DNA from: Actinomycetes bacterium
GTDB taxonomy: Bacteria; Actinomycetota; Acidimicrobiia; Acidimicrobiales; Acidimicrobilacustridaceae
DNA length: 64,000 nucleotides
Assembly (NCBI GenBank): GCA_031415655.1
Contig: JANOSD010000170.1
Location: 49,946 to 113,945 of the forward strand
Reading direction: 5' to 3'
The notes beneath the pieces were generated by a model. That model was not told the DNA's origin, ran no database searches, and worked only from the letters and a program-made list of their open reading frames with translations. Position numbers and translations under genes: made by a program. Positions 2,189 to 29,061 of this stretch are shown here, piece after piece (within the stretch, counting starts at the first letter, position 1; each line of letters begins with the position of its first letter).

Positions 2189-3209
2189 TCAGAGGAGGCC
2201 GGCAGCGGCGGCGAGCTCAGACAGAGGCTGGTCGGGGCGAGCGCCGAGGTGGGCAATCACCTCGGCGGCGGCGAGACCACCGAGACGGGCGCACGTCTCA
2301 AGATCGCGGCCCGTGGTGAACCCGTAAAGGAAGCCGGCGGCGAAGAGGTCGCCGGCGCCGGTGGTGTCGATGACCTTGTCGACCGGGCTCGCTCGCACGT
2401 CGTGACGGATGCCGTCGGCGGTGATGATCGTGGAACCCTTTTCACTTCGCGTCAGGCAGGCCAACTCGCAGTGGCCGGCCACCGCAGCAGCGGCCTTGTC
2501 GAAGTCGTCGGTCTCGTAGAGCGAGCAGATCTCGCTCTCGTTGGCGAAGAGGATGTCGACATGGTGTTCGGCCAGCTCGAGGAACTCGGCACGATGCCGA
2601 TCCACGCAGAACGAGTCGCTGAGCGTGAACGCCACCTTCTTGCCCGCCGCATGGGCCGCCTCCATTGCCCCCCGCATGGCCGCCTTGGCGTCATCGGCAT
2701 CCCACAGGTAACCCTCGCAATAGAGCACCTCCGCCGCCCGCACGAGGTCGAGGTTGACGTCGGCTGGCCCGATGAGGCTGGAGATCCCGAGGAAGGTGTT
2801 GAGGGTGCGCTCGGCGTCGGGGGTGACGAGGATCAAACAACGCGCCGTGGGCAACGTGTCGGCTCCGGCGGAGGGCGCGTCGTACTCCACGCCGATGGCC
2901 CGGATGTCGTGGCTGAACACCTCGCCCAACTGATCGTCGGCCACTTTCCCGATGAATGCCACGGAGCCGCCGAACGACGCGATGCCCGCCGCCGTGTTCG
3001 ACGCCGACCCGCCGCTTGATTCCAAGCCGGTGCCCATGTCGGCGTAGAGCGAAGTGGCGGTGGGGGCATCGATGAGTTGCATGGAGCCCTTGGTCATGCC
3101 GTGGTCGGCGAGAAAGGCATCGTCGGCATGGGCGATCACATCGACGATGGCATTGCCGATACAGACGACCTTGGCGGAAGGGGTCGTGGAAGAGGACGGG
3201 GCGTCAGTC
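2189..3209 (-). CDS. pfkB-family carbohydrate/nucleoside kinase (adenosine kinase-like)
   Basis: KVVCIGNAIVDV N-terminal motif and C-terminal DTTGAGDLFAAGFLYG anion-hole motif of the ribokinase/pfkB family. Start placed at internal MTDAPSS (3209). The ORF-track start at 3319 adds a low-complexity SEG-repeat extension. Confidence 0.7.
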
Positions 3210-4502
3210 ATGGGCCGAGACCCTATCGTCTTGCCTGTGGCGCCCTCCGACCCCTCCGACCCCTCCGACCCGTCGAACCCGTCGAACGACTCGAACGACC
3301 CGTCGAACGACTCGGCCACCGACCTCCTGTGCTACGTCGTGGCGCCCGGCACCGTCGACGTGGCCTTCGACGATGGTGCGAGCCTGGTTCGACTCGACGC
3401 CGGAAGGGCGCTCGCCGTCAACCGGAGCGCCTACGTGGTGTGGTTGGCCTGCGGAGACGACGACCGTGGCAGCACCCTCGGCGAGGTAGTGGCACTCGTG
3501 GCTGACGCCTTCGCCACGGATGTATCGGCGATCGAGGCGGAGGTTGCGGTCATCATCGATCGGTTGGTGGAACTCGACCTGATTCGGGTCGTGGGCGCGC
3601 CTCCCCCGGCGGGCCATACCGGGTGTGCGCCTGACGATCCTCGTGGGCGCACCCCCGAACCGATACCGAATAAACCCGATCGGTGGTGGTTGCCGATCGA
3701 GTTGAGCCCCTGCCAGAAGAACGTCGATGAACTTCCCTGGGCGGAGACGGTGTCGGTCGGTGTGGGTCGTTTCGTGGTTGGGGTGCGATGCGACTGCTCC
3801 CCGACCGCGGTGATCCTGCGTCGATTGCTGGGTGACCATGCGGTGGACGTACCCAACACGCCGGCAAACTTCTCGCTGGTGCTGGCAGCGGATGCGGGGG
3901 ATCATGGTTTCCCCCGACAGGGTCTTTACGAGGGGCGTACCTGGCTTACGTCCGACGCACGCCCCGCCCACATTCTGGGCACGTTGCTGGCACGATTGGC
4001 GGGCCTCTTGCCCACACCCGTCGGCTCGCTTCGTTTGAGCGCGATCGGGGTGGGATCGCCGCCTCCGGCCAGTTCACCGACCCCGAGCGGGTCCATGGTC
4101 GTCCTCCCTCAGTATCGGGGAGCGAGCTTCGGCGCCGCCACGGCGTGGACCGGTGCCGGCGCCGAACTCCGACCGGCGCCGTGCCTCATCACGGTGGAAG
4201 AACATCGAGTGCTCACCGTCCACGGCACCCAGAACGCCATCGAGGTCGACCCCGCAGTGGCCGCACGGCTCGGGCTCATCTCCCCGACAAGCCGTCCGCT
4301 CCACGCCATCGTGTGGCCTGGCCCGACCGTGCCGAGCACCCTGGCGGAATGCCACGCCGGGTTGGCGCCGTTTGTGCACGCTGCCCCCGACGACGACCGG
4401 GAGGCGCTGCTCCACACCCTCGCCGTGATGGTGCGGTCGGCGGCGATCCACGGGTACCCAACCGACGATCCTGTCAACGCACTCCCCCAACTCTTTCGTT
4501 GA
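3210..4502 (+). CDS. Hypothetical protein with N-terminal PqqD-like (RRE, RiPP-recognition-element-like) domain fused to ~300-aa domain of unknown function
   Basis: Residues ~40-130 (LLCYVVAPGTVDVAFDDGASLVRLDAGRALAVNRSAYVVWLACGDDDRGSTLGEVVALVADAFATDVSAIEAEVAVIIDRLVELDLIRVV) match the PqqD-family pattern. The C-terminal part has no motif I recognise. Start taken at MGRDP (3210) to avoid overlap with the pfkB gene. An N-terminal DPS/NPS repeat is encoded by 9-bp tandem repeats. Confidence 0.45.
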   Translation: MGRDPIVLPVAPSDPSDPSDPSNPSNDSNDPSNDSATDLLCYVVAPGTVDVAFDDGASLVRLDAGRALAVNRSAYVVWLACGDDDRGSTLGEVVALVADAFATDVSAIEAEVAVIIDRLVELDLIRVVGAPPPAGHTGCAPDDPRGRTPEPIPNKPDRWWLPIELSPCQKNVDELPWAETVSVGVGRFVVGVRCDCSPTAVILRRLLGDHAVDVPNTPANFSLVLAADAGDHGFPRQGLYEGRTWLTSDARPAHILGTLLARLAGLLPTPVGSLRLSAIGVGSPPPASSPTPSGSMVVLPQYRGASFGAATAWTGAGAELRPAPCLITVEEHRVLTVHGTQNAIEVDPAVAARLGLISPTSRPLHAIVWPGPTVPSTLAECHAGLAPFVHAAPDDDREALLHTLAVMVRSAAIHGYPTDDPVNALPQLFR

Positions 4503-4719
4503 GCGAAGACCGACGGGAAGCCGCCAAATGGCGAGCCCCCTATCGGCGCCGCCTCCTAGTGGTTGTCGGGATGTCCGTCCAGACACGGGGCGGCCTGGCG
4601 CCATTAGGCAAGGACGAAGCTCCGAAGGCCCCCTTGCTGCTGGGCGGCGAGGACGAGGACGCCGCGTGGCGGGATGTCCATGGCGGATCCGGGGCGGACA
4701 TGACTTCCCGGATACCCAC

Positions 4720-6477
4720 TTATACGGGCTTCAAGAAAAGAAAGAGCACGATGGCCAAAACCAACAGGATGGCGAGTGCCGCCACGATCACCATGACCAT
4801 CTTGGAACGGCCTTTGACCGGCGCGTCCGGCACGCCGGCGAGCCGCTGATACTCCGGTACTGGCGGGGGGATCGGCACCGACATCGGTGGGCCGGAGGGC
4901 ATCGGTGGCGCCGGTAGCGGGGCGACGGGTGGGGCCGGTGGTGGTGGCGGTGGCGGTGGCGGTGGCGGTGGGGCCGGTGGCGCGGCGACCGCGAGTGGCG
5001 CTCCGGGTGGATCGGCGGGCACCGGTGGTGCTGGCGAGGGAGGAAGGAAATCGACACGAACGGTGCCATCACCTTCGGAGATAAGCCCCGCCTCCATCAT
5101 GCGAATCAACTCTTCGGCACGAGATCCGGGGGCCTGGCCCGCGGGGGCGGGGGCGACGGCGGGCGGTGCGGGCGCCGGGCCCGCGGGCGGCGGGGGGATG
5201 CCCGCAGGCAGCGGAGCCAGAACCGGGCTCGGAGAAAGCCCCACCGCCGGGCTCACCACCGGTGCCGGACCGGCCGGAGGCGGCGGGATATCGGGCCGGG
5301 CCACCGGGACCGGAGGAGGGGGTGGTGCCGGCGCGGGTGCCGGAGCGACGGACGGAGATGCGACCGCCGCGCCACTAGGCGCCACCTCGCTGATGCCAGT
5401 ACCCATGCGAGGATGAAGTGATGTGGCTCGCACCACCTGGGCAGCGTTCGGGGTGACTCTCGTATTCGAACTGGTGGCGCGTTCGGTGATGGCGACGATC
5501 GCCGCCGCGCCGTGCACATCCACGCCGCTCCCGCGCAGCCATCCTGTACCGAGCGCCATCGTGGTGGCCGACGCCAACGTGAGGCCGAAGTCGTGAGCGG
5601 AGACGTAGCGATCGGCGGGCTCGCGGGCGATGGCCCGCATCACCGCTTCGGCGATCGGGGGCGGGATATCGGACCGCACCGAATCAATCGGGACCGGTGG
5701 GTTGCGAAGTTTGGCGGTGAGCTGCTGGAGCGGCTCTTCAGAATCGGGGAACGGAAGCTGGCCGGTGAGCAGTTCGTAGAGCATCACGCCACAGGCATAG
5801 ATATCGACGCCAGGACCGAGATCCGTGCCGAGGGCCTGCTCCGGTGCCATGTACGCCGGGGTGCCAACCACTTGCCCGGCCACCGTGAGCGAGGTGGATG
5901 CCTGATCGAGCACTTTGGCGATTCCGAAGTCGCTCAGCTTCAACGCCCCAGATTGCGCGAACAGAAAGTTTTCGGGCTTGACGTCGCGATGGATGACACC
6001 GTGGCTGTGGGCATGCTCAAGCGCCGACGAGGCAACCAGCAGGATTGCGCACGCCTGCGGCAACTGGATGCCCTCACCCACAAATCGATCCCAGAGCGTG
6101 CCGGACTGCATGCGCTCCATCACGATCAGGCAGAGCCCATCGTGGTCGACGAAATCGTAGAGGGGAACGATGTGGGGGTGGTCGAGTTTGGCGACTGTGC
6201 GGGCTTCTTCCAGGAAACGTTGCCGCACCGACGGATCGGCAGCGAACGCACGCGGAAGTTGCTTGACCGCGACTTGGCGGCCGAGTTGACGGTGCGTGGC
6301 TGCGAGCACCACACCCCAACCACCACGACCGAGTTCTTCGCCGATGTCGTAGCCAGGGAGGGCAGCCGCTACCAGGTTGCGATCGAAGATCACGATGAGA
6401 GTGTAGAGCCAAGCGCGGCAACGGTCGACGACATGCCCGTCTCGCCGCCACCGAGCACCGGTCTGTCCGGCCTGCAT
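4720..6477 (-). CDS. Hanks-type Ser/Thr protein kinase, with Pro-rich linker and C-terminal transmembrane anchor
   Basis: GRGGWGVV glycine loop, VAVK, HRDVKPEN catalytic loop, DFG, TPAYMAPE activation segment. Long PPPP linker with a poly-Pro run. Terminal hydrophobic segment MVMVIVAALAILLVLAIVLFLFL. The true start may be an internal GTG (~6390). Confidence 0.85.
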   Translation of the reverse strand: MQAGQTGARWRRDGHVVDRCRAWLYTLIVIFDRNLVAAALPGYDIGEELGRGGWGVVLAATHRQLGRQVAVKQLPRAFAADPSVRQRFLEEARTVAKLDHPHIVPLYDFVDHDGLCLIVMERMQSGTLWDRFVGEGIQLPQACAILLVASSALEHAHSHGVIHRDVKPENFLFAQSGALKLSDFGIAKVLDQASTSLTVAGQVVGTPAYMAPEQALGTDLGPGVDIYACGVMLYELLTGQLPFPDSEEPLQQLTAKLRNPPVPIDSVRSDIPPPIAEAVMRAIAREPADRYVSAHDFGLTLASATTMALGTGWLRGSGVDVHGAAAIVAITERATSSNTRVTPNAAQVVRATSLHPRMGTGISEVAPSGAAVASPSVAPAPAPAPPPPPVPVARPDIPPPPAGPAPVVSPAVGLSPSPVLAPLPAGIPPPPAGPAPAPPAVAPAPAGQAPGSRAEELIRMMEAGLISEGDGTVRVDFLPPSPAPPVPADPPGAPLAVAAPPAPPPPPPPPPPPPAPPVAPLPAPPMPSGPPMSVPIPPPVPEYQRLAGVPDAPVKGRSKMVMVIVAALAILLVLAIVLFLFLKPV

Positions 6478-6527
6478 TCTCGAACACCGCGCCGCGGCGG
6501 GAACGAGCGATCTATGCTCCCCGGTTC

Positions 6528-9500
6528 GTGGCCTACAACCTCCGCATCGAGGAACCGGGTGACGAGCCGCGGATCGTCACCATCGACACTGTCGCCGAGA
6601 TCGGCCGACACGGCGACGGTGTCCGGCTCGTTGACCCCACCGTCTCCCGCCGACACGTTCGGCTCGAGGTACGCGCCGACGGGGTCGCCGTCTCCGACCT
6701 CGACAGCACCTACGGCACCTACGTGCGCGGCCATAAGGTCACCACGCCCGTCTTGCTCCAAGACGGCGAGCGGTTGATCGCCGGCGAAACCACTATTACC
6801 CTTCTCGGACCCGCCGGAGCAGACCGCCCCAGCTTTGGTGCCCCCGCCGATACCGGAGCGCCGGCGTTCCCGACGGCGTCCCCGAGCGACGCTCCGACCC
6901 CCAGCGCGCTCCACGCCACCGGTCAGTTCGCCGCACCAACGGCCACCCCCGCACCACCGGTGACCGCTCCGCCCCCACTCGGCGCCACGCCCCCACCGCC
7001 CGGTTCGACGCCCTCCATCGATCCCACGATGCTGGCATCGATCCCCTACGACTCCCCCGTCGCCCCTTCGGTTCCCTCCCAACCTTCGCCCACGGCGCCG
7101 CCCCCGGGAATGCCGCAATCGCCGACAACTCTCGGCCGCCCCACCTCCGACGGCCTGGCATCGATCGACGCCGACGGTGCCGCCATTGTGAAGTACCGAC
7201 CCGGAAGTGCCGGAGAAAAGGCGGCCAAGGCGGTCGCCGTTCGCGTCAAGAAAGCCCGTCGCCGGCTCGAAGGTTTCGGCTCCGAGGGTTGGGGCACGAT
7301 TCCCACGATTTGCCTCGTCGACCCGTTCGCTGATCCCTCCACGGGTGAACTCGTGCTCGACGGCACCATCGTTGATGCCGAACGCAACGAGATCTGGATG
7401 GTGGTCACCCCCGAATCGCCTCCCGAGCCACCCGAACGGGCACTCACCCTGCTTTTCGGTGCCGCTCTGCCCGCTGCGGGCGAACTCGATGTGCTGCTTG
7501 AGGGCTACGGGCTTTGGCTCGCCAAGACACCGCGCCCCGACGAACAACTCTCGGGGGTGGCCATCGTTCCGCCCACGATGGCCGAGGGGGAACTCCGGTC
7601 GATCCTGTCGCTTTCCCTCGTGTATTTCCTCCTCGATCGCGAGAAAGAAGACGTGCTCCGGCGCACGCTCAGCAGCGCCCAGCCGGGCCGGCTCGACCAC
7701 GCCTTCCAGGAGCACTACGGCCTTCCGATTGCGTCGCTCATGCAGGCGTGGATGGAGAAAGTCGGCGGCGACGGCCCCACCGTAAAGACCGGCCAATTCA
7801 TGAAACTGGCCTGGCGGTATCTTCGGCCCTACAAGAAGAAGCAGGCCGAAGTCTTCTTCTACATGCTCTTCTCGTTGGCCTTTGCCACCGTGTTCCCGTT
7901 CGTCACCAAGGCGCTGTTCGACACCGTCCTTCCGGAAGCAATCGCCAACCAGCAAGTCGGCGGGATCGCCTCGCTGCTCGGCGGCCTCGGCATCGCGTTC
8001 CTCGTGTCGCTCTTGGCCGGCCTCCGACAGGCCTACCAGTCGGCTTGGATCAGCGGTGCGGTGGTGCGTGATCTCCGCTCGCAGATGTTCGGGAAGCTCC
8101 AGTCGTTAGGCACCGGTTGGTATAAACGCCATCAGCAAGGCGACGTGCTCACCCGGCTTTTCAACGACGTGATGGTGCTCGAGCAGGGCCTCACCACCAC
8201 CCTTCGCGAAGGCATCTTCCAGTCACTCTCGTTGGTGGTGTCATCGATTGTGATGCTCACCCTGAACCCATTGCTGGGCATCATCGTGCTGATCGGTGCA
8301 CCGCTCGTGGCCGTCGTCTACAAGACCATGGCCACCGGTGCGCAGAGCCGTGGGCTCGCCGTTCAGCAGGACACCGGCGCCCTGATGAACATCGCCGCCG
8401 AAAACTACGACGCCGAACCGGTGGTCAAACTTTTCTCGCTGCAGAATCGAGAGGTCGGTCGATTCCAACAGTTGTCGGAACGGCTGTTTCGGTCCGAGCG
8501 ACGACTCAACCTCTACGGCGGTTTATTCGGGCTGTCGGTCAACACCATCGTCACCCTTCTCCGTTTGGTGATCCTCGGCCTCGGGGCCTACCTCATCGTG
8601 CAGGGATCGTTCACCGTGGGTGGCTTGATCGCTTTCCTGGGGGTGATGGGCGAGGTGCTCGCTCCAGTGACCACCCTCACCAGCGTGGGGCAACAAGTGC
8701 AGCAGTCAAGCGGTGCGCTCTATCGCATCGAAGAGATCCTCAACGAACAACCCGAGTTGGTGGAGCCACCGGATGCCCAGACGCTCCCGCGCCTTGCGCA
8801 AGAGATCCGTATCCAAGGGGTCGACTTCTCCTACAACGCCGAACGCCAGATCCTCACCGGCGTCGATGCCGTGATCCCGGCCGGGCAACGGGTGGCGTTC
8901 GTGGGGGCATCCGGGTCCGGTAAGAGCACGATCTTTCAACTGCTCATGCGTCTCTACGACCCCGACGAAGGTGCGGTCCTCTACGACGGCGTCGACGCGC
9001 GTGCGGTCACCGTCGACTCGCTTCGGGGACAGCTCGGGGTGGTCTTCCAGGACAACTTCCTCTTCGACACCACCCTGCGAGAGAACATCGCCATGGGCAA
9101 ACCGGGTTGCACCGACGAAGAGGTGGTCGCCGCCGCCCAAGCCGCTGAAGTACACACCTTTATCGACCAACTGCCGCGTGGCTACGACACCACCGTGGGT
9201 GAGCGAGGCGGCATGCTGTCAGGGGGTCAGCGGCAGCGAGTGGCCATCGCCCGGGCGCTCGTGCGTAACCCACAGATCTTGCTGCTCGACGAAGCCACCT
9301 CGGCCCTCGACCCCAAGACGGAGCGGGCCATCATCGGCACGCTCAACCGGGTGGGGCAGGGTCGAACAACGGTGGCGATTACCCACCGCCTCACCTCAAT
9401 CAGCGGCTACGACACGATCTTCGTCGTGCATGAAGGCCGGATTGCGGAGCAGGGCGACCATCACCAACTCATCGCCGCCGGCGGGCTCTACGCTCGTTTG

Positions 9501-10196
9501 TGGGCCGAACAAACCGGGCAGGCGATCCCGCAGGCTCAGCCCAGCTTCGATGCGCTCGACGCCATCTCGCGAGTACCGATCTTCCACGCCCTCACGCCCG
9601 ATCGGTTGGCCCCGATCGTGCAACGACTCGTCGCGCAAGAGCTTGCGGCCGGCGCCACGATGCCGGATTCCGAAGGAGCATTGGTACTGCTCGCCCGAGG
9701 CCGTGGCCGGGTGCTCACCCCCGACGGCGTGGCGGGCTGGTCAATCAATGCCGAACTCGGCCCAGGCGACACGTTCGGAGTATCGGCACTGCTCAACGGC
9801 GCCACGGGATCCTGCCTACAGGCGGTGGAGCCAACCACGGTCCTCATCCTCGACACCGACATCATCGCCGGAATCATGGCCAGCGAGCCCACGGTGGCGG
9901 CGGCGTTCGACGGCAACCGGGAACTGTCGGCGGCGCCCCGGGGCGGCACCCGACTCACCCGAGTCACCACTGCGCTTTCTCGTGATGAGCTGGTAGCGGC
10001 ACTCGCCGCTGGTGGCGGCGGCCCCGGCAGCACTCCTGATACGGGGGGCGCCGTGGTCCCCGCCGCACCCGGAGGAATCTACGTTCCTCCCTCGCAACCG
10101 GTGCTGCCCGTCACCCCGATGTCGCCGAGTCGGGCCACGCTCGGCATCGCACCGCCTTCCTCCTCCCCCGACTCCCCCGACAACGAACACTTCTGA
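6528..10196 (+). CDS. Multidomain ABC exporter: N-terminal FHA domain, uncharacterised ~200-aa domain, 6-TM type-I exporter TMD, ABC ATPase, C-terminal cyclic-nucleotide-binding-like domain
   Basis: FHA signature (GRHGDGVRLVDPTVSRRHVRLEV...STYGTYVRG). Six predicted TM helices. Walker A GASGSGKST, ABC signature LSGGQRQRVAIARAL, Walker B ILLLDEATSALD, H-loop ITHRL. C-terminal cNMP-binding-like segment (PIFHALTPDRL...GPGDTFGVSALLNG). Pro-rich tails. Divergent from the kinase gene, ~50-bp spacer. Confidence 0.85.
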   Translation: MAYNLRIEEPGDEPRIVTIDTVAEIGRHGDGVRLVDPTVSRRHVRLEVRADGVAVSDLDSTYGTYVRGHKVTTPVLLQDGERLIAGETTITLLGPAGADRPSFGAPADTGAPAFPTASPSDAPTPSALHATGQFAAPTATPAPPVTAPPPLGATPPPPGSTPSIDPTMLASIPYDSPVAPSVPSQPSPTAPPPGMPQSPTTLGRPTSDGLASIDADGAAIVKYRPGSAGEKAAKAVAVRVKKARRRLEGFGSEGWGTIPTICLVDPFADPSTGELVLDGTIVDAERNEIWMVVTPESPPEPPERALTLLFGAALPAAGELDVLLEGYGLWLAKTPRPDEQLSGVAIVPPTMAEGELRSILSLSLVYFLLDREKEDVLRRTLSSAQPGRLDHAFQEHYGLPIASLMQAWMEKVGGDGPTVKTGQFMKLAWRYLRPYKKKQAEVFFYMLFSLAFATVFPFVTKALFDTVLPEAIANQQVGGIASLLGGLGIAFLVSLLAGLRQAYQSAWISGAVVRDLRSQMFGKLQSLGTGWYKRHQQGDVLTRLFNDVMVLEQGLTTTLREGIFQSLSLVVSSIVMLTLNPLLGIIVLIGAPLVAVVYKTMATGAQSRGLAVQQDTGALMNIAAENYDAEPVVKLFSLQNREVGRFQQLSERLFRSERRLNLYGGLFGLSVNTIVTLLRLVILGLGAYLIVQGSFTVGGLIAFLGVMGEVLAPVTTLTSVGQQVQQSSGALYRIEEILNEQPELVEPPDAQTLPRLAQEIRIQGVDFSYNAERQILTGVDAVIPAGQRVAFVGASGSGKSTIFQLLMRLYDPDEGAVLYDGVDARAVTVDSLRGQLGVVFQDNFLFDTTLRENIAMGKPGCTDEEVVAAAQAAEVHTFIDQLPRGYDTTVGERGGMLSGGQRQRVAIARALVRNPQILLLDEATSALDPKTERAIIGTLNRVGQGRTTVAITHRLTSISGYDTIFVVHEGRIAEQGDHHQLIAAGGLYARLWAEQTGQAIPQAQPSFDALDAISRVPIFHALTPDRLAPIVQRLVAQELAAGATMPDSEGALVLLARGRGRVLTPDGVAGWSINAELGPGDTFGVSALLNGATGSCLQAVEPTTVLILDTDIIAGIMASEPTVAAAFDGNRELSAAPRGGTRLTRVTTALSRDELVAALAAGGGGPGSTPDTGGAVVPAAPGGIYVPPSQPVLPVTPMSPSRATLGIAPPSSSPDSPDNEHF

Positions 10197-10207
10197 GAGG
10201 TCAACTC

Positions 10208-10792
10208 ATGTCCGATCCCTCGACCGTCACCCGCCAGGCGCGGCCCACCCTCGAAGCGATTTGTGTCACGAGTCGTGAAGCCACCACGGCGTCGACGGCA
10301 TGGATGATGGCGCTCGACGACGGTGAGCTGCTCATCGTGGCTGCGGCCTGCAGCGATCCGGCCTTCGGAGCTTCGCTGGTGGGTCGACGTTTTCCGCTTT
10401 CCGATGGCACCGCCGCGATGGTGTTACAGAGTGGTCAACCGGTCGCCCTCCAACCCGGTTCGGCCTCGGTGGCGTCCGATGCCATCGCCACCGCGGTGCT
10501 CGGTCGGCAACCCGCCAGCATTGTTTGTGTGCCCTGCGCCGACGACGAGCGGGTCGTCGGGGTACTGCAACTTGTCGACCGTGCCGATGGCGGTCCCTTC
10601 GGATTCGACGACCTCGAAATGTTGTCGATGCTCGGCACCGTCGCCGGTGCGTCACTGGTCGAATCGGGAGCCGGTCTGCTCGACGTTCCGTCCCCCGAAG
10701 CGCTCGGTCGCGATCTCGCCTCACTGGCTGATGCCGATCCCACCCGGTATGCCGCGCTGGCGCGGGTCATCGAGGTCATGCTCGGACAGTGA
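10208..10792 (+). CDS. GAF-domain protein
   Basis: 194 aa. GAF-like fold signature (VGVLQLVDRADGGPFGFDDLEMLSMLGTVAGASL). Starts 12 bp after the ABC gene stop. Overlaps the next gene by 4 bp. Confidence 0.55.
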   Translation: MSDPSTVTRQARPTLEAICVTSREATTASTAWMMALDDGELLIVAAACSDPAFGASLVGRRFPLSDGTAAMVLQSGQPVALQPGSASVASDAIATAVLGRQPASIVCVPCADDERVVGVLQLVDRADGGPFGFDDLEMLSMLGTVAGASLVESGAGLLDVPSPEALGRDLASLADADPTRYAALARVIEVMLGQ

Positions 10793-11769
10793 CCGACACC
10801 GGCACCAACGACGAACCCCGCCCCGCATGGTCGCGCGAATCGCTCGTCCTTCGCCTGGAGAAGGTGGAGACGATCGAGGAGCTCTCGCGCGAGTGGGCAT
10901 GGGGCGACGCCACCGGCAAAGGGGTTCGCGTCGCCATCGTCGACAGCGGCATCGACAGCACCCACCCGGCGCTCGAAGGTTGCGTCGATGCCGATGCCGG
11001 TGTGGTGATCACCCCCTCGAAGGAAGAGGGCGGGCAGCCCGTGGTGGTGCAGGGCAACCACCCCGACAGCTTCGGCCACGGAACGGCGTGCGCCGGCATC
11101 ATCCACTCCCTCGCTCCCGCGGCGGAGATCACCAGTGTGAAGGTGCTCGGCGGCATGCTGAGCGGCACCTCCGACATCTTCGTGGCCGGCCTTCGTTGGG
11201 CCATCGAACAACGTTTCGATGTGGTCAACCTTTCGCTCGGCAGCCGCAAACGTGACTGGGCATTGGCCTTCCACGAGGTGTGCGATGAGGCCTACTTCAA
11301 AGGTTCGTTTCTCGTAACCGCAGCCAACAACGTGAGCCGGGTCACCTACCCGTCACTGTTCGCATCGGTGGCGAGTGTGGCATCACACACCGGTACCGAC
11401 CCCTGGCGTTTCCACTACAACCCGGAACCCCCAACGGAGTTCCTCGCCCGAGGCATCAACGTGGAGGTGCCGTGGCTAAACCATGGCACCATCACCACTA
11501 CCGGCAACTCCTTCGCCGCTCCCCACGTCTCGGGTCTCGCCGCGCTCATTCGTTCGAAACACCGCGACCTTCAGCCGTTTCAACTCAAGACGGTGCTGTG
11601 GGCCACCGCCAACAACGTGCAGGAAGCCCAAGCACGGGGGGGTGCCGTGCAAGCCCCCGAGGTCGCCGGGCGGTTCACCCAAGCCCTACGTCTCACCGGC
11701 GCGCTGTCCACCAGCCCTCGCTCCACCATGAGCCTGCGGTCCATCCAACAACAACTCGCCGACCCCTGA
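10789..11769 (+). CDS. Subtilisin-like serine peptidase (S8), no signal peptide (intracellular)
   Basis: Catalytic triad motifs VAIVDSGID (Asp), HGTACAG (His), GNSFAAPHVSG (Ser). No N-terminal hydrophobic signal sequence. Start overlaps the GAF gene stop (ATGA). Confidence 0.8.
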   Translation: MTDTGTNDEPRPAWSRESLVLRLEKVETIEELSREWAWGDATGKGVRVAIVDSGIDSTHPALEGCVDADAGVVITPSKEEGGQPVVVQGNHPDSFGHGTACAGIIHSLAPAAEITSVKVLGGMLSGTSDIFVAGLRWAIEQRFDVVNLSLGSRKRDWALAFHEVCDEAYFKGSFLVTAANNVSRVTYPSLFASVASVASHTGTDPWRFHYNPEPPTEFLARGINVEVPWLNHGTITTTGNSFAAPHVSGLAALIRSKHRDLQPFQLKTVLWATANNVQEAQARGGAVQAPEVAGRFTQALRLTGALSTSPRSTMSLRSIQQQLADP

Positions 11770-11795
11770 ACGCTCGCCGCTCCCAGGAGTGACGG

Positions 11796-13400
11796 TCACA
11801 TGCGGCCCAGCCATGGCCGAGTGCGTTCCGCAAAGGGGTGCGGCGAGATCGAATTGGTCCGGTCAATCACCGCTGTGATCTTGCGTTCGTCCCAGCGTTC
11901 CCACGACTGTCCGGCGAAATCGCCGGGTGTGCCGGTACGGGCGAAACAGGCCCAGGATTGCGCCATCGTTCGGTGGACCGATCGGAGCCCGACTCCCCGG
12001 TTGGCCATGAACGTCTGGAGGGACTTCCACGGTGCCAAATTGCCGAACACGTACGCCTGCTCGGCCGCGTGGACGGCACCGAGTTCGTTGCCTTCCGCGT
12101 GAAACGCAAACAGGTACACATACACCGGAGCACTTTGTTCACGCAGTGCATCCGCGAACCGCATCGCCGGTACCGTGAACTTGTGGTCCGTATTTATGGT
12201 GTCGTGCAACACGGTGGCATCGGGATCGTCTGCTGTCGCGGCCGACAGCGTCTTGCGATAGGTATCGATCACCGACGAGTGGTCGCCGCCGAAGAATCGA
12301 GTGGCCATCGATGCAAGGAGCTCAGGCGCTTGGGCGCGGCTGTGCAGACCGACGAAGTTCCACTCGTCGGTAGTTGTTCCGATGATGGTAGGAACCGGGC
12401 GAGCGGCGCCGCTTTGCATTGCCTCTATGGGCGAGGTTGTCAGTAGGTCGCCGTCCACCACCACTCCGAACGGGAGAAACGCCTCGATCGAAGGGGCGAG
12501 CGCATCACCCACGCCCACGGTGAATGTCGCGGCCCGCTGTGCCGCCATCAGGTCAGAGACAGGCACCTGTTGGAGATCAGCGATCGTTCGTGTCTGCAGT
12601 TTGTCGAGCACCAGATCGGCCACGCGCTCAGCGCGTTCCACCGGCAAGGCGAAGTGGCCGGCACCGCTTTGCAACACGGCCTGCTGGAACAGCTCGTCGG
12701 CGCGAGGAATGGCCAACATCGCGGCGATGCTCATCGCCCCGGCGGACGCTCCCACTGCGGTGACATTCGTGGGGTTGCCGCCGAACGCCGCGATGTTGTG
12801 GTGTACCCACTTGAGCGCGGCAATCTGGTCGAGCAACCCCACGTTCCCCGTGATCTGCTCTCCCCCGGGTAGGTGCGCGAGCCGAAGCCATCCGAGAGCA
12901 CCGAGCCGATAGTTGATGGTCACGACGATGACGTCGTGCGCTCCGACCAACAGCGACGGATCGAACGGCTGCCGGCTCCCGGACCCGTCCACGAAGCCGC
13001 CGCCGTGAATCCACACAAGGACCGGCCGGCCAGGCTTCGCCTCAGCAAGAACCGAGACGTTCAGATAGAGGCAGTCCTCGTGAATGACCGATCGGCGCGG
13101 GCCGAACGGCATCCAGAACGCGTTGCCCTGTTGTGGACCCTCCGGAGCGAAGCGGTGTCCATCACGAATGCCGTCCCACGACGGAGCGGGCCCCGGAGGA
13201 AGAAACCGGCGTGCTCCGATCGGGGCCTCGGCGTAGGGAATCGACCGATAGGCAACCGTCTGACCCACGCGCCAGCCGCGGACCTTGCCTTGGGCGAGGT
13301 GGACCGTATCGACGGCGCGCCGGATCGAGGTGCCGCGCTGCGCCGCATTGATGGCCGCGACAACAGTGCGCTCGCCGACCCTTTTCGCCGTACCCGCCAT
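11796..13400 (-). CDS. Carboxylesterase, type B (para-nitrobenzyl esterase-like)
   Basis: IPYAEAPIGARRF N-terminal motif, IHGGGF oxyanion motif, nucleophile elbow GASAGA. Start set at internal MAGTAKRV (13400); the longer ORF-track start adds an Arg-rich extension. Confidence 0.75.
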   Translation of the reverse strand: MAGTAKRVGERTVVAAINAAQRGTSIRRAVDTVHLAQGKVRGWRVGQTVAYRSIPYAEAPIGARRFLPPGPAPSWDGIRDGHRFAPEGPQQGNAFWMPFGPRRSVIHEDCLYLNVSVLAEAKPGRPVLVWIHGGGFVDGSGSRQPFDPSLLVGAHDVIVVTINYRLGALGWLRLAHLPGGEQITGNVGLLDQIAALKWVHHNIAAFGGNPTNVTAVGASAGAMSIAAMLAIPRADELFQQAVLQSGAGHFALPVERAERVADLVLDKLQTRTIADLQQVPVSDLMAAQRAATFTVGVGDALAPSIEAFLPFGVVVDGDLLTTSPIEAMQSGAARPVPTIIGTTTDEWNFVGLHSRAQAPELLASMATRFFGGDHSSVIDTYRKTLSAATADDPDATVLHDTINTDHKFTVPAMRFADALREQSAPVYVYLFAFHAEGNELGAVHAAEQAYVFGNLAPWKSLQTFMANRGVGLRSVHRTMAQSWACFARTGTPGDFAGQSWERWDERKITAVIDRTNSISPHPFAERTRPWLGRM

Positions 13401-13405
13401 CGCCG

Positions 13406-14310
13406 TCAATCGAGATCGTCCGGGAAATAGTCCCAGGAGCCGCTGCTGCCGCGAAACGTATAGGCCACGCTGGCGGCAATCTGCATTGGTGGTGTGGCCA
13501 ACCACGGCCCGAGGAAGTAGTTGCCCATCGGTACCCCGGTCCCGGCGCCGAACAGTCCTGGCGGTTTGCTTCCGAAGTACCGCTCCCAGTAGCGCTCGGA
13601 GAAGAACACGGCGCAATAGTCGAGCAGTACGTACTCATCGATGAACACGTACCCAAAAAGATTGACGTGGTTCCAGAGATTGATCAGCACATCGTGCATG
13701 CTCGCCTGATAGTCGACGTCGATGAACAGCATGGCAATCCGCTCCGTATGGAGCGGCAGGGTGTCGGAGAACCACCCTTTTCGGAAGGTGCACACGTCGA
13801 TGCAGCCGTACTTGGTGATGTTCGCCCGCACCACGTCGAGGCTCCCGTGGAGCCCACCTGCGCTCTCCACCACCCCGAACTTGTCGCCCTCCACGGCGTC
13901 GGGAAGGCCCTCGAACGAGTCGTACAGGATGAGCTCGCGACCCACGATCTGACACACGAGCGACAGGTTGAGGGCGGATCCCCCGAGGAACGATCCGCAC
14001 TCCACCACGGCGCCCTCCTGCTCCGGCGGAATCTCGAGAAGCTTCGCCGCCATCGCCAAGTGCGCCTTGAACGACGTGGCCGTCACCACCTGCGTGGAGT
14101 TCCGATAGATCCGCCAGCCGAGCGCAAACTTCTTCCGCCACGTCATGCCATACGAGGGATGGATACGGCGGTTGTAGAAGAGGGCGGCCACCGTCAGCGG
14201 CAACGTGACGAACTCGTGCACGATCCGGAACCCGTGGTGAACCACGACCTCGAGCGTCGACGTCTCGTGCGGCGTCAGGTCGCGAGCGCGCACGACCTTG
14301 GGGAACGACA
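13406..14310 (-). CDS. TylF/MycF-family (macrocin O-methyltransferase-like) SAM-dependent methyltransferase
   Basis: Family-like motifs VVECGSFLGGSALNLSL and LFIDVDYQAS. Start set at MSFPKVV (14310). Separated by 5 bp from the downstream esterase, likely an operon. Confidence 0.65.
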
Positions 14311-14584
14311 TGGCGGCGATCCTACGAGCTGACCGTTGCCGCGAATCGAACCGGGGCCCGCGGCACGGGATGGGGTGGCAGGTGCCAACCGTCAAGCCGA
14401 GCAAGTCAGCTTGAATCGCCGTATCCGCAACCCAGGCTTTCTGTCCTGGCCTTCGACGCGGGAGCCAACCGACCCAGGTGGGACCGATCCGCCGAACCCG
14501 GCGATCTTCACCCGGACGGCGGCAACCCAACCTCTCGACCCCGCGAAACTCTTTTTCTCGGCATTCGTCGCCCTCCCTTCGACA

Positions 14585-15109
14585 CTATTTGATTTCGCTG
14601 ATGAGGTACTTGATGACGTAACGGGATGGCTGCTTGTAGAAATTCAACTGAAAAACATGGAGGTTCCCGTTGGCCTGCTTCTTCGCCGAAATCTGAGTGC
14701 CGGTTGCGGTCATATCCGCTGTCCATCCCTTGGCCTTGAGCGCCTCCCCGAACCACACCACTACGTTGGCGGGGTCATCGACGCCGGCAACGGTGAAGCG
14801 CACGGAGAGCGTGGCTGAGTTGTCGAAGTTGTTTCCGTCGACGGTCCGCCCTGATCTCGCCGGAGTGAAGTCCCGATCTGTTTCTACGGCACCGGGATAC
14901 ATCAGATCCTTCTCGGGCCGCATGTCACCCTCCCCAGGTCCACGCGAACATGCTGACGTCAACATCAAACACGCGGCGATCGCAAAAACGCCCCGAAGCA
15001 GGCGCGGGCGCGGTGGTCGACGTACGTTAGAAGCGGACTTTGTCGACACGTCAGGCCTCGCAACTTGTTCGGGTTTCGGCAGTGCAACTATCGGTCCCGG
15101 AGCCGCCAT
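14585..15109 (-). CDS. Lipoprotein, paralog 1 of a duplicated pair
   Basis: Lipobox LTSAC after hydrophobic VFAIAACLM. ~75% identical to the downstream paralog. Start codon uncertain (ATG at 15109 or a non-ATG nearer the signal peptide). Confidence 0.6.
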
Positions 15110-15386
15110 CGGCGAGATCGGATCCGTCGCCGCCGGTAAGGCTGTCGTTGCCGGCGTCGCCGAAAAGAAGGTCTGGTCCTGGACCGCCGGAGATGGTGTC
15201 GTCGCCCGAACCACCGTTCAACAGGTCCTCACCCAGGGAACGCCTTGTCCCGAACGATTGCCAGACCATCACCGGCATCACAAGATCACGACGGCCGAAA
15301 CGAACACTGGTGCGCAGGTCGATAACCCAAGCGCTCTCGACCACTCGAAACTCTCTCTCGCGTTCGTCGTGCCCCCCTCACGGGCA

Positions 15387-15911
15387 CTATTTGATCTCGC
15401 TGATGAGGTACTTGATGACGTAACGCAATGGCCCCTCATAGGAAGTCACTTGAAAAATATGGAGGTTCCCGTTGGCCTGCTTCTCCGCCGAAATCTCCGT
15501 CCCATTCGAATTCGTATCGACCGTCCAGCCCTTGGCCTTGAGCGCGTCCCCGTACCAGCCCACCACCGACGAATCATCGTCCACGCCGTCGACGTTGATG
15601 TGGACCGAAAGCGTGGCTGAGTTATCGAAGTTGTTTCCATCGACCGTCCGACCTGATCTCGCCGGATAAAAGTACCGGCCGGTTTCTACGGCACCGGGAT
15701 ACATCAGATCCTTCTCGGGCAGCATGTCACCCTCCCCAAGTCCACGCGAACATGCTGACGTCAACATCAAACACGCGGCGATCGCAAAAACGCCCCGAAG
15801 CAGGCGCGGGCGCGGTGGTCGACCGACGTTAGAAGCGGACTTTGTCGACACGTCAGGCCTCGCAACTTGTTCGGGTTTCGGCAGTGCAACTATCGGTCCC
15901 GGAGCCGCCAT
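15387..15911 (-). CDS. Lipoprotein, paralog 2 of a duplicated pair
   Basis: Same signal/lipobox and conserved C-terminus [11 protein letters not shown]. 5' region nearly identical at the DNA level to paralog 1. Confidence 0.6.
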   Translation of the reverse strand: MAAPGPIVALPKPEQVARPDVSTKSASNVGRPPRPRLLRGVFAIAACLMLTSACSRGLGEGDMLPEKDLMYPGAVETGRYFYPARSGRTVDGNNFDNSATLSVHINVDGVDDDSSVVGWYGDALKAKGWTVDTNSNGTEISAEKQANGNLHIFQVTSYEGPLRYVIKYLISEIK

Positions 15912-15956
15912 CGGCGAGATCGGATCCGTCGCCGCCGGTGGCGAGGGGGTAGTGGG

Positions 15957-17690
15957 TCAGCGTTGGCCCGAACCGCGACCGGCATCACCGGAGGACGGTC
16001 GGCCACCGCTGTTGGATCGACCCGCCGTGGATCCACTTCGCGACCCAGCGCTGGCCGACCGGGAGCCGTTGCCGCGCGAAGACGATGGCGACCCCGTTCG
16101 CGCCGATCCCGAGGACGATCCCGAAGCTGATCGGCCTCCACCGGAAGAGGGACGACGGCCTTGACCGCCTTGACCGCCACCGTTGCCCCTCCCGGCTCCG
16201 CTGCCGCTACTCCCGGCCTTGCGGCGGGGTTGCTGCTGCTGTTCGGTTCGTTGCGGAAGTGCCAAGACGGAGATCACCTCCGCTTCGGTGAGCCGGACGC
16301 GGTCGCCGGGCGCAAGTTGAGCCAGCAGCGCGTCGTTAGGCCGAACCACCGTCGTGGTGGGACGGATACCGGCCTGACGCGCCAACTGGGTGACCTCCCG
16401 GCGTTGGTCTTCGGTGGCCAGCGTGACCACGGTGCCGTCGTTGCCGGCCCGAGCGGTGCGGCCCGAGCGATGCAGGTAGGCCTTGTGCTCCGTGGGCGGG
16501 TCGGCGTGGATCACCAGCGCCACATCGTCGACGTGAATGCCTCGCGCCGCGATGTCGGTGGCCACGAGTGCCGTCGCCCGACCGTCGGAGAACGCCGCCA
16601 GATTTCGAGTACGAGCGTTCTGGGCGAGGTTGCCGTGCATCTCCACGGCCGGTACACCGGCAGCGATGAGTTGACGGGTGAGCATCTTGGCACGGTGTTT
16701 GGTGCGGGTGAACACCATGGTGCGACCGGGGGCCGAGGTGAGATCGAGCAGAATCTCGAAACGGTCGGCGGCACTCACATGCAAGACGTGGTGCGTCATA
16801 GTGGCAACCGGCGACTGCTCCGAATCGACACTATGCGTGACGGGGTTCGACAGGTAGCGCCTCACGATCACGTCGATGCCGTTGTCGAGCGTGGCGGAGA
16901 ACAACAGCCGTTGCCCCTGCTTGGGCGTGCGATCGAGCAGCTTCTTGACCACCGGAAGGAAACCGAGGTCGGCCATGTGATCGGCTTCGTCGAGCACGGT
17001 GATCTCTACTGCGTCGAGTTTGGCGTGTCCTTGGCCGATCAGGTCTTCGAGGCGGCCGGGACAGGCGACGACGATGTCGACGCCCTTGCGCAGACCATCC
17101 ACCTGCGGCATCTGACCGACGCCGCCGTAGACCACCATGGTTCGCAAGCCCAATGGTCGGGCCAATGGTGTGATAGCAGCGTGGATCTGGCTGACCAGCT
17201 CACGGGTGGGGGCAAGGATCAGCGCTCGAGGTCGGCCAGAACGGCGCTCGGTGCCGGATTCCGACAGGCGGGTGAGCATGGGGAGTACGAACGCAAGCGT
17301 CTTTCCGGAGCCGGTTCGACCACGACCGAGCACGTCTCTCCCCGCCAGGGAATCGGGCAGGGTGGAGGTCTGGATGGGAAATGGTTCGTCGATGCCCATG
17401 CCGGCAAGGACTTTGCACAAGGTCGACGGCACGCCGAGGCTGGCGAAGGATCGGGCAATCGATGGCACCGAACTCGCGGCTGACGAAACATCAGCAGCGT
17501 GGGCGAGCGGCGCGCCGAATACGGCGTCAAGAATGGTGGCGGGGATCGGGCCGCTGGACTCGGACATGGTGTCCGAGGGGCTCGGTCGCGCCGAGGTAGC
17601 GGTGGTGGAACGGGAACGGGGGCGGTGAGCCGCCATGAGAATCTCCAAAGTTGGGTGACTGCTGGTGAACGCATCGGATCGCTCCGTCAT
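15957..17690 (-). CDS. DEAD-box ATP-dependent RNA helicase with long C-terminal Gly/Ser/Arg-rich tail
   Basis: Q-motif region, Walker A GTGSGKT, PTRELV, DEAD as DEADHMAD, SAT, HRSGRTARAG. ~130-aa RGG/GS-rich C-terminus. Start may be an internal Met (~17570). Confidence 0.85.
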   Translation of the reverse strand: MTERSDAFTSSHPTLEILMAAHRPRSRSTTATSARPSPSDTMSESSGPIPATILDAVFGAPLAHAADVSSAASSVPSIARSFASLGVPSTLCKVLAGMGIDEPFPIQTSTLPDSLAGRDVLGRGRTGSGKTLAFVLPMLTRLSESGTERRSGRPRALILAPTRELVSQIHAAITPLARPLGLRTMVVYGGVGQMPQVDGLRKGVDIVVACPGRLEDLIGQGHAKLDAVEITVLDEADHMADLGFLPVVKKLLDRTPKQGQRLLFSATLDNGIDVIVRRYLSNPVTHSVDSEQSPVATMTHHVLHVSAADRFEILLDLTSAPGRTMVFTRTKHRAKMLTRQLIAAGVPAVEMHGNLAQNARTRNLAAFSDGRATALVATDIAARGIHVDDVALVIHADPPTEHKAYLHRSGRTARAGNDGTVVTLATEDQRREVTQLARQAGIRPTTTVVRPNDALLAQLAPGDRVRLTEAEVISVLALPQRTEQQQQPRRKAGSSGSGAGRGNGGGQGGQGRRPSSGGGRSASGSSSGSARTGSPSSSRGNGSRSASAGSRSGSTAGRSNSGGRPSSGDAGRGSGQR

Positions 17691-17819
17691 TCACGACGGG
17701 GATCAAACGAGCGCCGCAGCAGTGGTGACCGACTTCGGCCACGCACCAATTGTAGTGGCACGGCAACCGTTTTCCTTGCACCCGATCTCGGCGGCGATGG
17801 TTGACCACCTCCTGTGAGG

Positions 17820-27346: not shown

Positions 27347-27487
27347 CGAGCGGTATAGCACGCGCGCGGGGAGCGGCGGCGCGACAGTGCCAAACGCCTA
27401 CGCTTCCCTCACGGTGGTCGTACCCTGTGATGACATCGTCACCGTGTTCCCTGCGGAGTATCCCCGCCCGGCATCGGATCGAGTTCC

Positions 27488-28204
27488 ATGTTTGTTTCTC
27501 CCGACGGCAACGACGTCACCACCAACCTCGCCGACCTCACCCAGTCGCAGCGAGACGTCGTGCGGCAACGACTCGGCGCCGAGGGAATCGAGGCGCGATG
27601 GACCGGATTCGAGCTCACCATCGATGGAGCGTGGGAGGACCGAGCCACGTCAATCATCGGTGAGATTCGGGCGACACCCCCCCAACCCTTCGGCGGCTCT
27701 GCCGACACCGGTGCCGCGCTGCCCGGCCCTCCCGCCCCGGCTGGCCCGGCGTACGCGCCCACCGCACAAACACCTGGGTACGGCCAACCCGGCTACGGCC
27801 AAACCCCCGGCTATGGCCAACCCGCCTACGGCCAACCCGGCTATGGGCCCGGGGCCTATCCGGCATATCCGGCCGGTGGGGCGGCATACCCCCAACCCGC
27901 CTATCCCCAACCGGGGTACGGCTACGGCTATCCGCCGATGCCGGTGAACAACCAGAACGCTGTGGTGGCGTTGGTGCTGTCCATCGTGGCCTGGGTCGCA
28001 TGCCCCATCATTCCTGCCATCATCGCCATCGTGATGGGGAACAACGCCAAGCGGGAGATCGAGGCGTCCGGCGGCAGGCAAACCGGCGACGGGTTAGCCA
28101 AGGCCGCAGTCCTCATCAGTTGGATACACCTCGGCCTGTACGGCACCTTGATCCTGGTCTACCTCGTCATCATTTTTGTCGCTATCGGAACATCGAGCTT
28201 CTAG
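27488..28204 (+). CDS. Membrane protein paralog A: conserved N-terminal domain, GYGQP-repeat linker, C-terminal two-TM (DUF4190-like) module
   Basis: N-terminus TNLADLTQSQRD...WTGFELTIDGAWEDRATSIIGEIR. Repeats PGYGQPGYGQTPGYGQPAYGQPGYG. Two C-terminal TM helices. Confidence 0.6.
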   Translation: MFVSPDGNDVTTNLADLTQSQRDVVRQRLGAEGIEARWTGFELTIDGAWEDRATSIIGEIRATPPQPFGGSADTGAALPGPPAPAGPAYAPTAQTPGYGQPGYGQTPGYGQPAYGQPGYGPGAYPAYPAGGAAYPQPAYPQPGYGYGYPPMPVNNQNAVVALVLSIVAWVACPIIPAIIAIVMGNNAKREIEASGGRQTGDGLAKAAVLISWIHLGLYGTLILVYLVIIFVAIGTSSF

Positions 28205-28275: not shown

Positions 28276-29061
28276 ATGTCGAACCCTGACGGTCACCAGA
28301 TCAGCACCAACCTCGCCGATCTCACCCAAACCCAACGTGATCAACTGACCGCTCGTCTTCGGTCCGAAACGATCAGCAACTCCTGGACTGGTTTCCAACT
28401 CACGGTCGACGAAGCGTACGAACAACGGGTCACTTCACTCATCGAACACGTCCGCACCACACCCGTCGCACCAATCGAGGGCGACCAACTCTCCATCGGG
28501 CCGCACACCGGGCCGACCTTTGCCTCCTCAGCATCCGCCGCAGGCGGGGGTTGGGCCGCTCCTCCTCCCGGCCCGAGTTCAGTCCCTCCGGGCATCTACG
28601 TCCCTCCAACGTTCTCCGGAGGCACCCCGACCGGTGGCTACGGCCAACCCGGCTACGGCCAACCCGGGTACGGACCACCCGGCTACGGGGCTCCCGGCTA
28701 CGGACCACCCGGCTACGGACCACCCGGCTACTCCGGCTACGGCCCATCCGACTACGGCTACGGGTACCCGCCGCCCTACCGCATCACCAACAAAAACGCC
28801 ACGAACTCGATGATCTTCGGCATCATTTCCGTCGCGGTGATATTCGTGTGCGCGTACCTCTCCGTGTTCATGATCCCCCTCTCCGTGCTGGCGATCGTCA
28901 AGGCTCGCCAAGCCAAACGTGAGATCGCCGCGAGCAACGGCGTAGAGGCCGGCTCGGGGCAGGCCACGGCGGGCGAGATTCTGGGGTGGATCCACGTCGG
29001 GTTGATGTCGCTCGCGCTCGTGATCATCGCCGTAGCCGTCATCGTGTCGATCACCACGTAG
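28276..29061 (+). CDS. Membrane protein paralog B of the same family
   Basis: N-terminus TNLADLTQTQRD...WTGFQLTVDEAYEQRVTSLIEHVR. GYGQPGYGQPGYGPPGYGAPGYGPPGYG repeats. Two C-terminal TM helices. Confidence 0.6.
   Translation: MSNPDGHQISTNLADLTQTQRDQLTARLRSETISNSWTGFQLTVDEAYEQRVTSLIEHVRTTPVAPIEGDQLSIGPHTGPTFASSASAAGGGWAAPPPGPSSVPPGIYVPPTFSGGTPTGGYGQPGYGQPGYGPPGYGAPGYGPPGYGPPGYSGYGPSDYGYGYPPPYRITNKNATNSMIFGIISVAVIFVCAYLSVFMIPLSVLAIVKARQAKREIAASNGVEAGSGQATAGEILGWIHVGLMSLALVIIAVAVIVSITT

Follow-up and report, generated by a model that had tools for sequence, protein, structure and literature searches.

A PqqD-like recognition domain fused to a candidate HprK-related pseudokinase in a rare protein family of Actinomycetota

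PqqD-like domains, the recognition elements (RREs) of pathways that make RiPPs (peptides synthesized ribosomally and then modified post-translationally), are the main class-independent handle for new peptide natural-product pathways. Here we describe a gene that joins such a domain to a candidate pseudokinase. It lies in a 64-kb stretch of DNA (64,000 nucleotides; hereafter the window) from an Actinomycetes bacterium of the Acidimicrobiia (GenBank assembly GCA_031415655.1, contig JANOSD010000170.1, positions 49,946 to 113,945). What are the closest described systems? For the N-terminal part they are the RREs of lasso-peptide B1 proteins and of PqqD (TbiB1, TfuB1, PqqD; PF05402), and for the C-terminal part the proteins of the model TIGR04352, 'HprK-related kinase A'. 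A related 'HPr-rel-A' system, judging from the model descriptions, is taken by us to comprise PqqD_rel_X (TIGR04353), HprK_rel_B (TIGR04355) and an associated nucleotidyltransferase. The nearest characterised analogy is that of the lasso precursor kinases, such as the paeninodin kinase. These HPr-kinase homologues phosphorylate the C-terminal serine of a peptide, and nucleotidyltransferase-dependent glycosylation follows (PMC8498205). Their clusters hold the HPr-kinase homologue, a PqqD-like B1 protein and a nucleotidyltransferase, and sulfotransferase genes have also been noted in them (PMC8498205).

The locus in the window departs from each of these systems. Unlike the lasso B1 and PqqD proteins, its RRE is fused to a 280-residue HprK-like domain, and the window has no B2 protease, lasso cyclase or PqqE-type radical-SAM gene, and no precursor gene nearby. 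The C-terminal domain resembles HprK-related kinase A along its entire length, but two features of these kinases, the Walker-A loop and the YLTDE motif, are gone from the family; even the kinases encoded next to family members score under the TIGR04352 cut-off. The likeness to HPr-rel-A systems is confined to one clade of the family, whose genes directly follow such a kinase and are accompanied by PqqD and NTP_transf_5 genes. These partners are met beside the gene only in loci L009-L013, L015 and L017, and nowhere in the 64-kb window. Two of these loci, L009 and L010, hold the same kinds of genes as the lasso precursor kinase clusters. The lasso kinases are active and do not form one protein with the RRE, whereas the window protein lacks the nucleotide-binding loop, is fused to its RRE and has no lasso core genes around it. 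It likewise differs from proteins of the HprK/P and PEPCK fold in having no catalytic P-loop.

The assignment of the N-terminal domain to the PqqD/RRE family is solid. Pfam PqqD (PF05402) matches residues 59-125 of the 430-residue form of the protein with 29.5 bits (cut-off 23.4; E 9.4e-7), a match that takes in positions 4-67 of the 67 in the model, and a profile of the family matches TbiB1 among PDB sequences at E 1.5e-12. In an AlphaFold2 model of the fusion protein, made with 43 family sequences (predicted local distance difference test score, pLDDT, 87.7; predicted template-modelling score 0.86), the domain is a predicted winged helix (a sheet of three strands, and three helices) that can be superposed on solved RREs. 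The NCBIfam PqqD models gave no match to the window protein at E<=0.01. A sequence-only reading of the window had proposed this PqqD-like N-terminus, and the match above the Pfam gathering threshold and the one to TbiB1 bear it out. For the remaining ~300 residues that reading had recognised no motif. This holds as far as curated profiles go, as neither Pfam nor NCBIfam matches there; profile-profile alignment (hhalign), however, points to a paralogue of HprK-related kinases that is devoid of the Walker-A motif.

The alignment in question compares the family with six HprK-related kinases that are encoded next to family members in other genomes. It reaches a probability of 97.1% (E 6.6e-11) over 273 columns and spans the whole C-terminal domain and the whole kinase. 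Against a single neighbouring kinase the probability is 93% (E 2.8e-7), and hmmsearch with the family profile matches the L009 kinase at E 7e-10. At the Walker-A site, all six neighbouring kinases read xSGK[ST]T, whereas GK[ST] is found in none of the 49 family sequences. In the HprK/P-PEPCK superfamily this P-loop (GxxGxGK[ST] or SGK[ST]T) serves to bind nucleotide or pyrophosphate, and an acidic, metal-binding motif (TDE/ADD) comes after the P-loop helix. The latter, which reads YLTDE and is invariant in the six kinases, is replaced in the window protein by GAGAELRPAP at the aligned position. Near-invariant throughout the family are W168, G182 and R184 of 'GVR', and S213 of 'NFS', which most neighbouring kinases have in common with it ('W', 'VR', 'YS'). 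Because Walker-A and YLTDE are lost while these N-lobe residues are retained, the simplest reading of the alignment is that of a pseudokinase, which would have kept the N-lobe and lost the phosphotransfer machinery; with both motifs gone, no canonical ATP binding or phosphate transfer is to be expected. The domain thus looks like a paralogue of kinases of the 'HprK-related kinase A' type that has degenerated catalytically. Modelled alone, it reaches a pLDDT of 87.6.

What might a protein of this kind do? We lean towards a peptide-binding adaptor or regulator that combines an RRE with a catalytically degenerate HprK-related domain, and hold this to be somewhat probable. The RRE, of the type found in lasso-peptide B1 proteins, where the peptide is bound as an added beta-strand, would capture a peptide or protein tail. 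The pseudokinase lobe would then hold the captured tail, or dock on a partner enzyme encoded elsewhere. In this way the protein may have the role of an adaptor or regulator, itself non-catalytic, in peptide or protein modification, and not that of the maturase of a local RiPP cluster. This is close to the fallback idea of the sequence-only reading, that the RRE-like fold serves to recognise a different partner, peptide or protein, which stays the best reading.

Several observations weigh against this proposal. The curated HprK models fail to match the window protein: TIGR04352 has no match to it at E<=0.01 (cut-off 200 bits), and only one of 43 family members is matched, at E 0.0023. A plain hidden Markov model of the neighbouring kinases does not match the window protein at E<=0.01 either, and HMMER detects no sequence similarity between the C-terminal domain and PDB chains. 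Foldseek against the PDB gives a best E of 0.015, which is not significant, and its top 13 matches are all PEPCK. The similarity to the HprK/PEPCK fold is therefore remote and belongs to a predicted structure. Pseudoenzymes called by motif loss sometimes retain activity through other residues, and the residues conserved in the window's own clade might make up a site of a new kind. We found neither a bound peptide nor a partner or substrate of the fusion protein. We also found no published function for 'HPr-rel-A' systems, and no paper that names TIGR04352, TIGR04353, TIGR04355 or 'HprK-related'. Nor did we find a paper describing an RRE-pseudokinase fusion, and the RRE-Finder papers make no mention of kinase fusions. 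The fusion is a real, rare and uncharacterised architecture, with a function that we can propose from its parts.

How widespread is the family? Searched exhaustively by phmmer, a set of 1.84 billion cluster representatives yields 49 clusters that match the C-terminal domain at E<=1e-3, while a word-indexed homology search returns only the identical protein and one orthologue. The members that were looked up are unnamed or called 'hypothetical protein'; the family is tiny, rare and uncharacterised. A PqqD domain is fused at the N-terminus in 26 of the 49. In three, a thioredoxin-like domain (AhpC/TSA, WSPxCGYC) is present as well, in the order PqqD-thioredoxin-family domain or family domain-PqqD-thioredoxin. 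Several of the 'stand-alone' members are probably fragments. TIGR04355 has no match in the family. The members fall into two clades, a kinase-associated one (motifs LYRS..VVRSR and PGRYP) and that of the window (P0002-P0010, P0015, P0022, P0032 and P0041; motifs SPCQ..D.LPW, R.GLYEG and APDDD). In the latter S157, C159, D164, R227, G229 and G233 are strongly conserved, together with the APDDD motif. Among GTDB species-representative genomes, a scan with an alignment of the kinase-associated clade retrieves seven members, all in metagenome-assembled genomes (MAGs) of Acidimicrobiia or unclassified Actinomycetota; a scan of the genome collection with an alignment of the window's own clade finds no relative.

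In the kinase-associated clade (L009/L011, L010, L012, L013, L015 and L017) the family gene comes immediately after the gene of a ~315-residue HprK-related kinase, often with overlapping stop and start codons. Against TIGR04352 these kinases score 94-144 bits (E 8e-27 and 4e-42), under the cut-off of 200. The operons run from the intact kinase through PqqD to the family domain, which is the last gene and comes with or without a thioredoxin-like domain. They often carry NTP_transf_5 and sit within polysaccharide or glycosylation loci; in their vicinity are discrete PqqD genes, the NTP_transf_5 nucleotidyltransferase and numerous genes for glycosyltransferases, sulfotransferases and Wzc-like proteins. 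The PqqD domain of one member, P0011, passes the TIGR04353 cut-off (36.6 versus 35). Because the RRE and the dead-kinase domain are fused in some genomes and encoded by separate genes in others, as in L013, they are likely to work together. More generally, the way in which the RRE, dead-kinase and thioredoxin-like parts have fused or separated reveals which components cooperate. Through the family one can approach the 'HprK-related kinase + PqqD + nucleotidyltransferase' systems of Actinomycetota, so far unstudied, and it offers a natural pair of active and dead kinases for probing peptide recognition by HPr-kinase homologues. A local expansion of this pair is seen in L017 (4366-12844), a Microthrixaceae MAG with two family paralogues and three HprK_rel_A-like genes within 9 kb.

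The window's clade has a different setting. No HprK-related kinase, NTP_transf_5 or extra PqqD gene occurs in the 64-kb window or within 10 kb on either side of P0007, P0009, P0010 and P0015. The same is true of the L018 contig, which encodes P0008 and extends only ~1.5 kb to either side. Other neighbours include an ABC1 kinase and a P450 (P0007), SOD and MscS (P0009), a GGDEF-EAL protein and a fucosidase (P0010), and a SWIM/SNF2 pair (P0015). The gene of this clade is solitary and has left the kinase operon; in the lineage of the window it has been inherited vertically beside PfkB. A functional link to PfkB was considered and set aside. The two genes adjoin only in the window, L001 and L018, where the flanks are 70-90% identical, and not at P0007, P0009, P0010 and P0015; being limited to one lineage, the adjacency looks like inherited synteny.

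Could the fusion gene nevertheless belong to a RiPP pathway with the genes downstream of it? A kinase, an ABC exporter and a subtilase are indeed its neighbours, as the sequence-only reading had it and a Pfam scan of the window confirms. That reading suggested a functional link between them and the gene. In some RiPP clusters the leader peptidase is a subtilase and the exporter an ABC exporter, which counts in favour of a non-canonical RiPP maturation and export cluster made of the RRE fusion, the Ser/Thr kinase, the FHA-ABC exporter, the GAF protein and the S8 peptidase, as does the closeness of these genes in the window. The closest relative (L001) also retains the Ser/Thr kinase beside the fusion gene. 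We consider such a cluster very improbable, as synteny already refutes it in large part. In L018, a divergent PfkB gene (70% identical), the fusion gene (P0008, 32%) and PepN (73%) follow one another with no intervening genes, and a block of ~16 kb (window ~4700-20500) is absent. This block, a lineage-specific insertion or deletion, holds the Ser/Thr kinase, the FHA-ABC-cNMP exporter, GAF, S8, a carboxylesterase, a TylF-like methyltransferase, a DEAD helicase and a GGDEF-EAL protein. Since the L018 fusion gene directly precedes PepN, the block lies outside its conserved neighbourhood. Beyond the short contigs L001 and L002, which are near-identical or closely related, an S8 or GAF gene is found in none of the 19 homologue loci L003-L021, and an ABC-exporter-like gene and a Ser/Thr kinase occur once each, 7-8 kb away. 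In the window, moreover, the fusion gene and the Ser/Thr kinase gene converge, and ABC, GAF and S8 make up a separate co-directional unit. The RiPP link to the protease and exporter block is unsupported on account of the L018 synteny and the absence of S8 and GAF elsewhere. The near-absence of peptidase and exporter neighbours among homologues speaks, in essence, against the pathway idea of the sequence-only reading. The fusion gene is independent of this block and should not be grouped with it in annotating the window. Pathway genes of other kinds are missing too. Among the 37 large open reading frames that were Pfam-scanned over the window we find housekeeping and signalling genes only, with no radical-SAM, YcaO or lasso B2/C gene, in agreement with the earlier remark that no canonical RiPP maturase is visible. 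A scan for precursor candidates near the gene had been suggested; no precursor-like open reading frame turned up next to it. No conserved small open reading frame flanks the fusion gene, and its 217-bp downstream spacer contains only GC-artefact frames and is unconserved in the orthologue. The gene thus stands outside every known RiPP cluster type. RRE-based mining would flag it all the same, which is a useful caution: an RRE match with protease and exporter genes beside it is no sure sign of a RiPP cluster.

Three further explanations bear on the gene itself. It might be a decaying, functionless remnant of a lasso-peptide (B1-type) or HPr-rel-A cluster, in line with an RRE closest to lasso B1 proteins, the isolation from all partner genes, the raised evolutionary rate and a slippage-prone repeat. 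We doubt this strongly: the reading frame is intact, both domains are under constraint relative to an orthologue at considerable synonymous distance, the fold is predicted with confidence, and a homologue with as little as 32% identity still has this architecture at the same place in the chromosome. Less easily dismissed, though in our estimate unlikely, is an active enzyme. The C-terminal domain would possess a new, P-loop-independent site and modify a peptide delivered by the RRE, as the core of a non-canonical RiPP-like pathway with its precursor elsewhere. Such a site, built for example on conserved Cys, Asp, Arg and Ser residues of the N-lobe, is unlikely to the same degree. Its advocates could cite the residues invariant in the clade (S157, C159, D164, W168, G182, R184, S213, R227, G229 and G233), the purifying selection on both domains, the thioredoxin-like CxxC fusions of some members, which hint at redox chemistry, a P450 gene immediately downstream in the homologue locus L004, and a small Cys-rich protein with a twin-arginine (Tat) signal encoded next to P0011. 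The family-wide invariant W, VR and YS, however, are common to intact kinases and look inherited; no conserved small open reading frame accompanies the gene, the Cys-rich peptide is found in no other locus, and the gene contexts of the solitary clade have nothing in common. Finally, the RRE, a domain tied until now to RiPP biosynthesis, may have been recruited for a non-RiPP job: in a solitary, vertically inherited protein of Acidimicrobiia it would, together with the dead HprK-type lobe, read the tail of a peptide or (phospho)protein and in this way regulate some cellular process. Alternatively, the lobe without a P-loop may carry out a new, as yet unrecognised RRE-dependent modification on a substrate encoded elsewhere. 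We rate this, too, as a minority view, and return to the adaptor or regulator as the reading that we prefer.

Is the gene real, and how does it evolve? The reading frame (3054..4502, +) is intact and has two in-frame starts, ATG at 3210, which gives the 430 residues of the sequence-only reading, and GTG at 3237, which gives 421 and is chosen in the public gene calls of the identical protein P0001 and of the orthologue P0002 (76% identical). The content of guanine and cytosine at third codon positions (GC3) is 0.79, similar to that of the adjoining genes. Compared with the orthologue in L001, the ratio of nonsynonymous to synonymous substitution rates (dN/dS) is 0.22 at a dS of 0.65; this is the only comparison that gives a usable ratio, dS being saturated against L018. 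From GC3 and dN/dS we conclude that the coding is real. The gene is under purifying selection in both domains. Its neighbours have a dN/dS of 0.07-0.10 in the same comparison, and its protein retains 32% identity to the L018 counterpart versus 70-73% for the flanks. The fusion gene thus evolves two to three times faster than its neighbours, yet is constrained. Coordinates are collected in Table 1.

Table 1. Features of the fusion gene and its surroundings. Positions are those of the window, except in the L013 row, where they are those of that locus.
Feature	Position	Strand	Basis
RRE-pseudokinase (candidate) fusion gene	3237..4502	+	Open reading frame and translation; P0001/P0002 calls; GC3 0.79; dN/dS 0.22 vs L001
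Conserved block with divergent starts	3193..3250	.	DNA alignment of window vs L001; sequence itself
9-bp tandem repeat, encoding DPS/NPS/NDS low-complexity disordered tail	3243..3314	+	Tandem Repeats Finder; pLDDT ~55
PqqD-like RRE domain, residues ~31-118 of 421-residue form	3327..3590	+	
Inter-domain linker with conserved motif GCAPDDPRGRTP, residues 119-140	3591..3656	+	dN/dS; P0002-P0006 conservation
HprK-related/PEPCK-fold domain without P-loop (candidate pseudokinase), residues ~141-421	3657..4499	+	
Site aligned with Walker-A loop of kinases (ESGKST); reads GASFGA, no Lys, no Ser/Thr	4119..4136	+	hhalign
PfkB kinase, divergent upstream of fusion gene	2189-3211	-	Pfam
Ser/Thr kinase, convergent to fusion gene	4720-6477	-	Pfam
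FHA-ABC exporter-cNMP-binding fusion (1222 residues)	6528-10196	+	Pfam
GAF protein	10208-10792	+	Pfam
S8 subtilase	10789-11769	+	Pfam
M1 aminopeptidase PepN	20509-23112		73% identical to L018 counterpart
Separate, end-overlapping genes in L013	kinase 8702-9649; PqqD 9646-10014; family domain 10007-10855; PqqD-thioredoxin 10764-11594		

The strongest constraint in the gene falls on the linker between the two domains. Its motif GCAPDDPRGRTP has a dN/dS of 0.06, the lowest in the gene, and is kept in P0002-P0006; despite this the linker has a pLDDT of only ~68. It may represent a short linear motif, or else a ligand bound in cis. The N-terminus shows the opposite. The in-frame 9-bp tandem repeat that had been noticed there is confirmed by Tandem Repeats Finder, which gives a period of 9 with 3.2 copies that are 100% identical and further degenerate ones, and the tail it encodes is predicted to be disordered in the AlphaFold2 model. 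The copy number varies: 48 nt, most of the repeat, are missing in the orthologue (L001/P0002). In view of this loss and of the low pLDDT, we regard the repeat as a variable, slippage-prone, disordered N-terminus and not as part of a functional core.

Upstream, ~55 nt of almost 100% identity between the window and L001 stand out from the adjacent coding DNA (~75-90%). This block holds both divergent starts, the ATG of PfkB (3211..3209, -) and the ATG 3210 and GTG 3237 of the fusion gene (+). TAnnnT hexamers lie 7-8 nt upstream of each start (TATCGT, 3224-3229, +; TAGGGT, 3225..3220, -). The block therefore resembles, and probably represents, overlapping divergent promoters for leaderless transcripts. 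A scan of the sequence for sigma-70 consensus promoters and terminators gave no useful match.

The small protein next to P0011 deserves a description of its own. It is encoded in L010 (7405-7749, -), convergent to P0011, and has 114 residues, a twin-arginine signal (SRRQIIQRGALVGAVAW) and 17 Cys in its last 60 residues. It is possibly a substrate for the thioredoxin-containing variants of the family; a screen for Cys-rich open reading frames found no counterpart in the other loci.

Some further features of the window were noted in passing. The FHA-ABC-cNMP, GAF and S8 trio is an unusual, signalling-coupled exporter module, and the Ser/Thr kinase that precedes it has an exceedingly proline-rich linker of ~250 residues with a run of 13 Pro, and a C-terminal transmembrane anchor. 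Rfam and tRNA scans of the window came back empty. A segment of lower GC content (14531-15956, ~0.615) has no confident gene; the 307-residue open reading frame at 14697-15620 has no Pfam match and a poor codon-position GC bias. Two adjacent paralogous genes, at 27434-28204 and 28276-29061 (+), each end in a DUF4190 domain.

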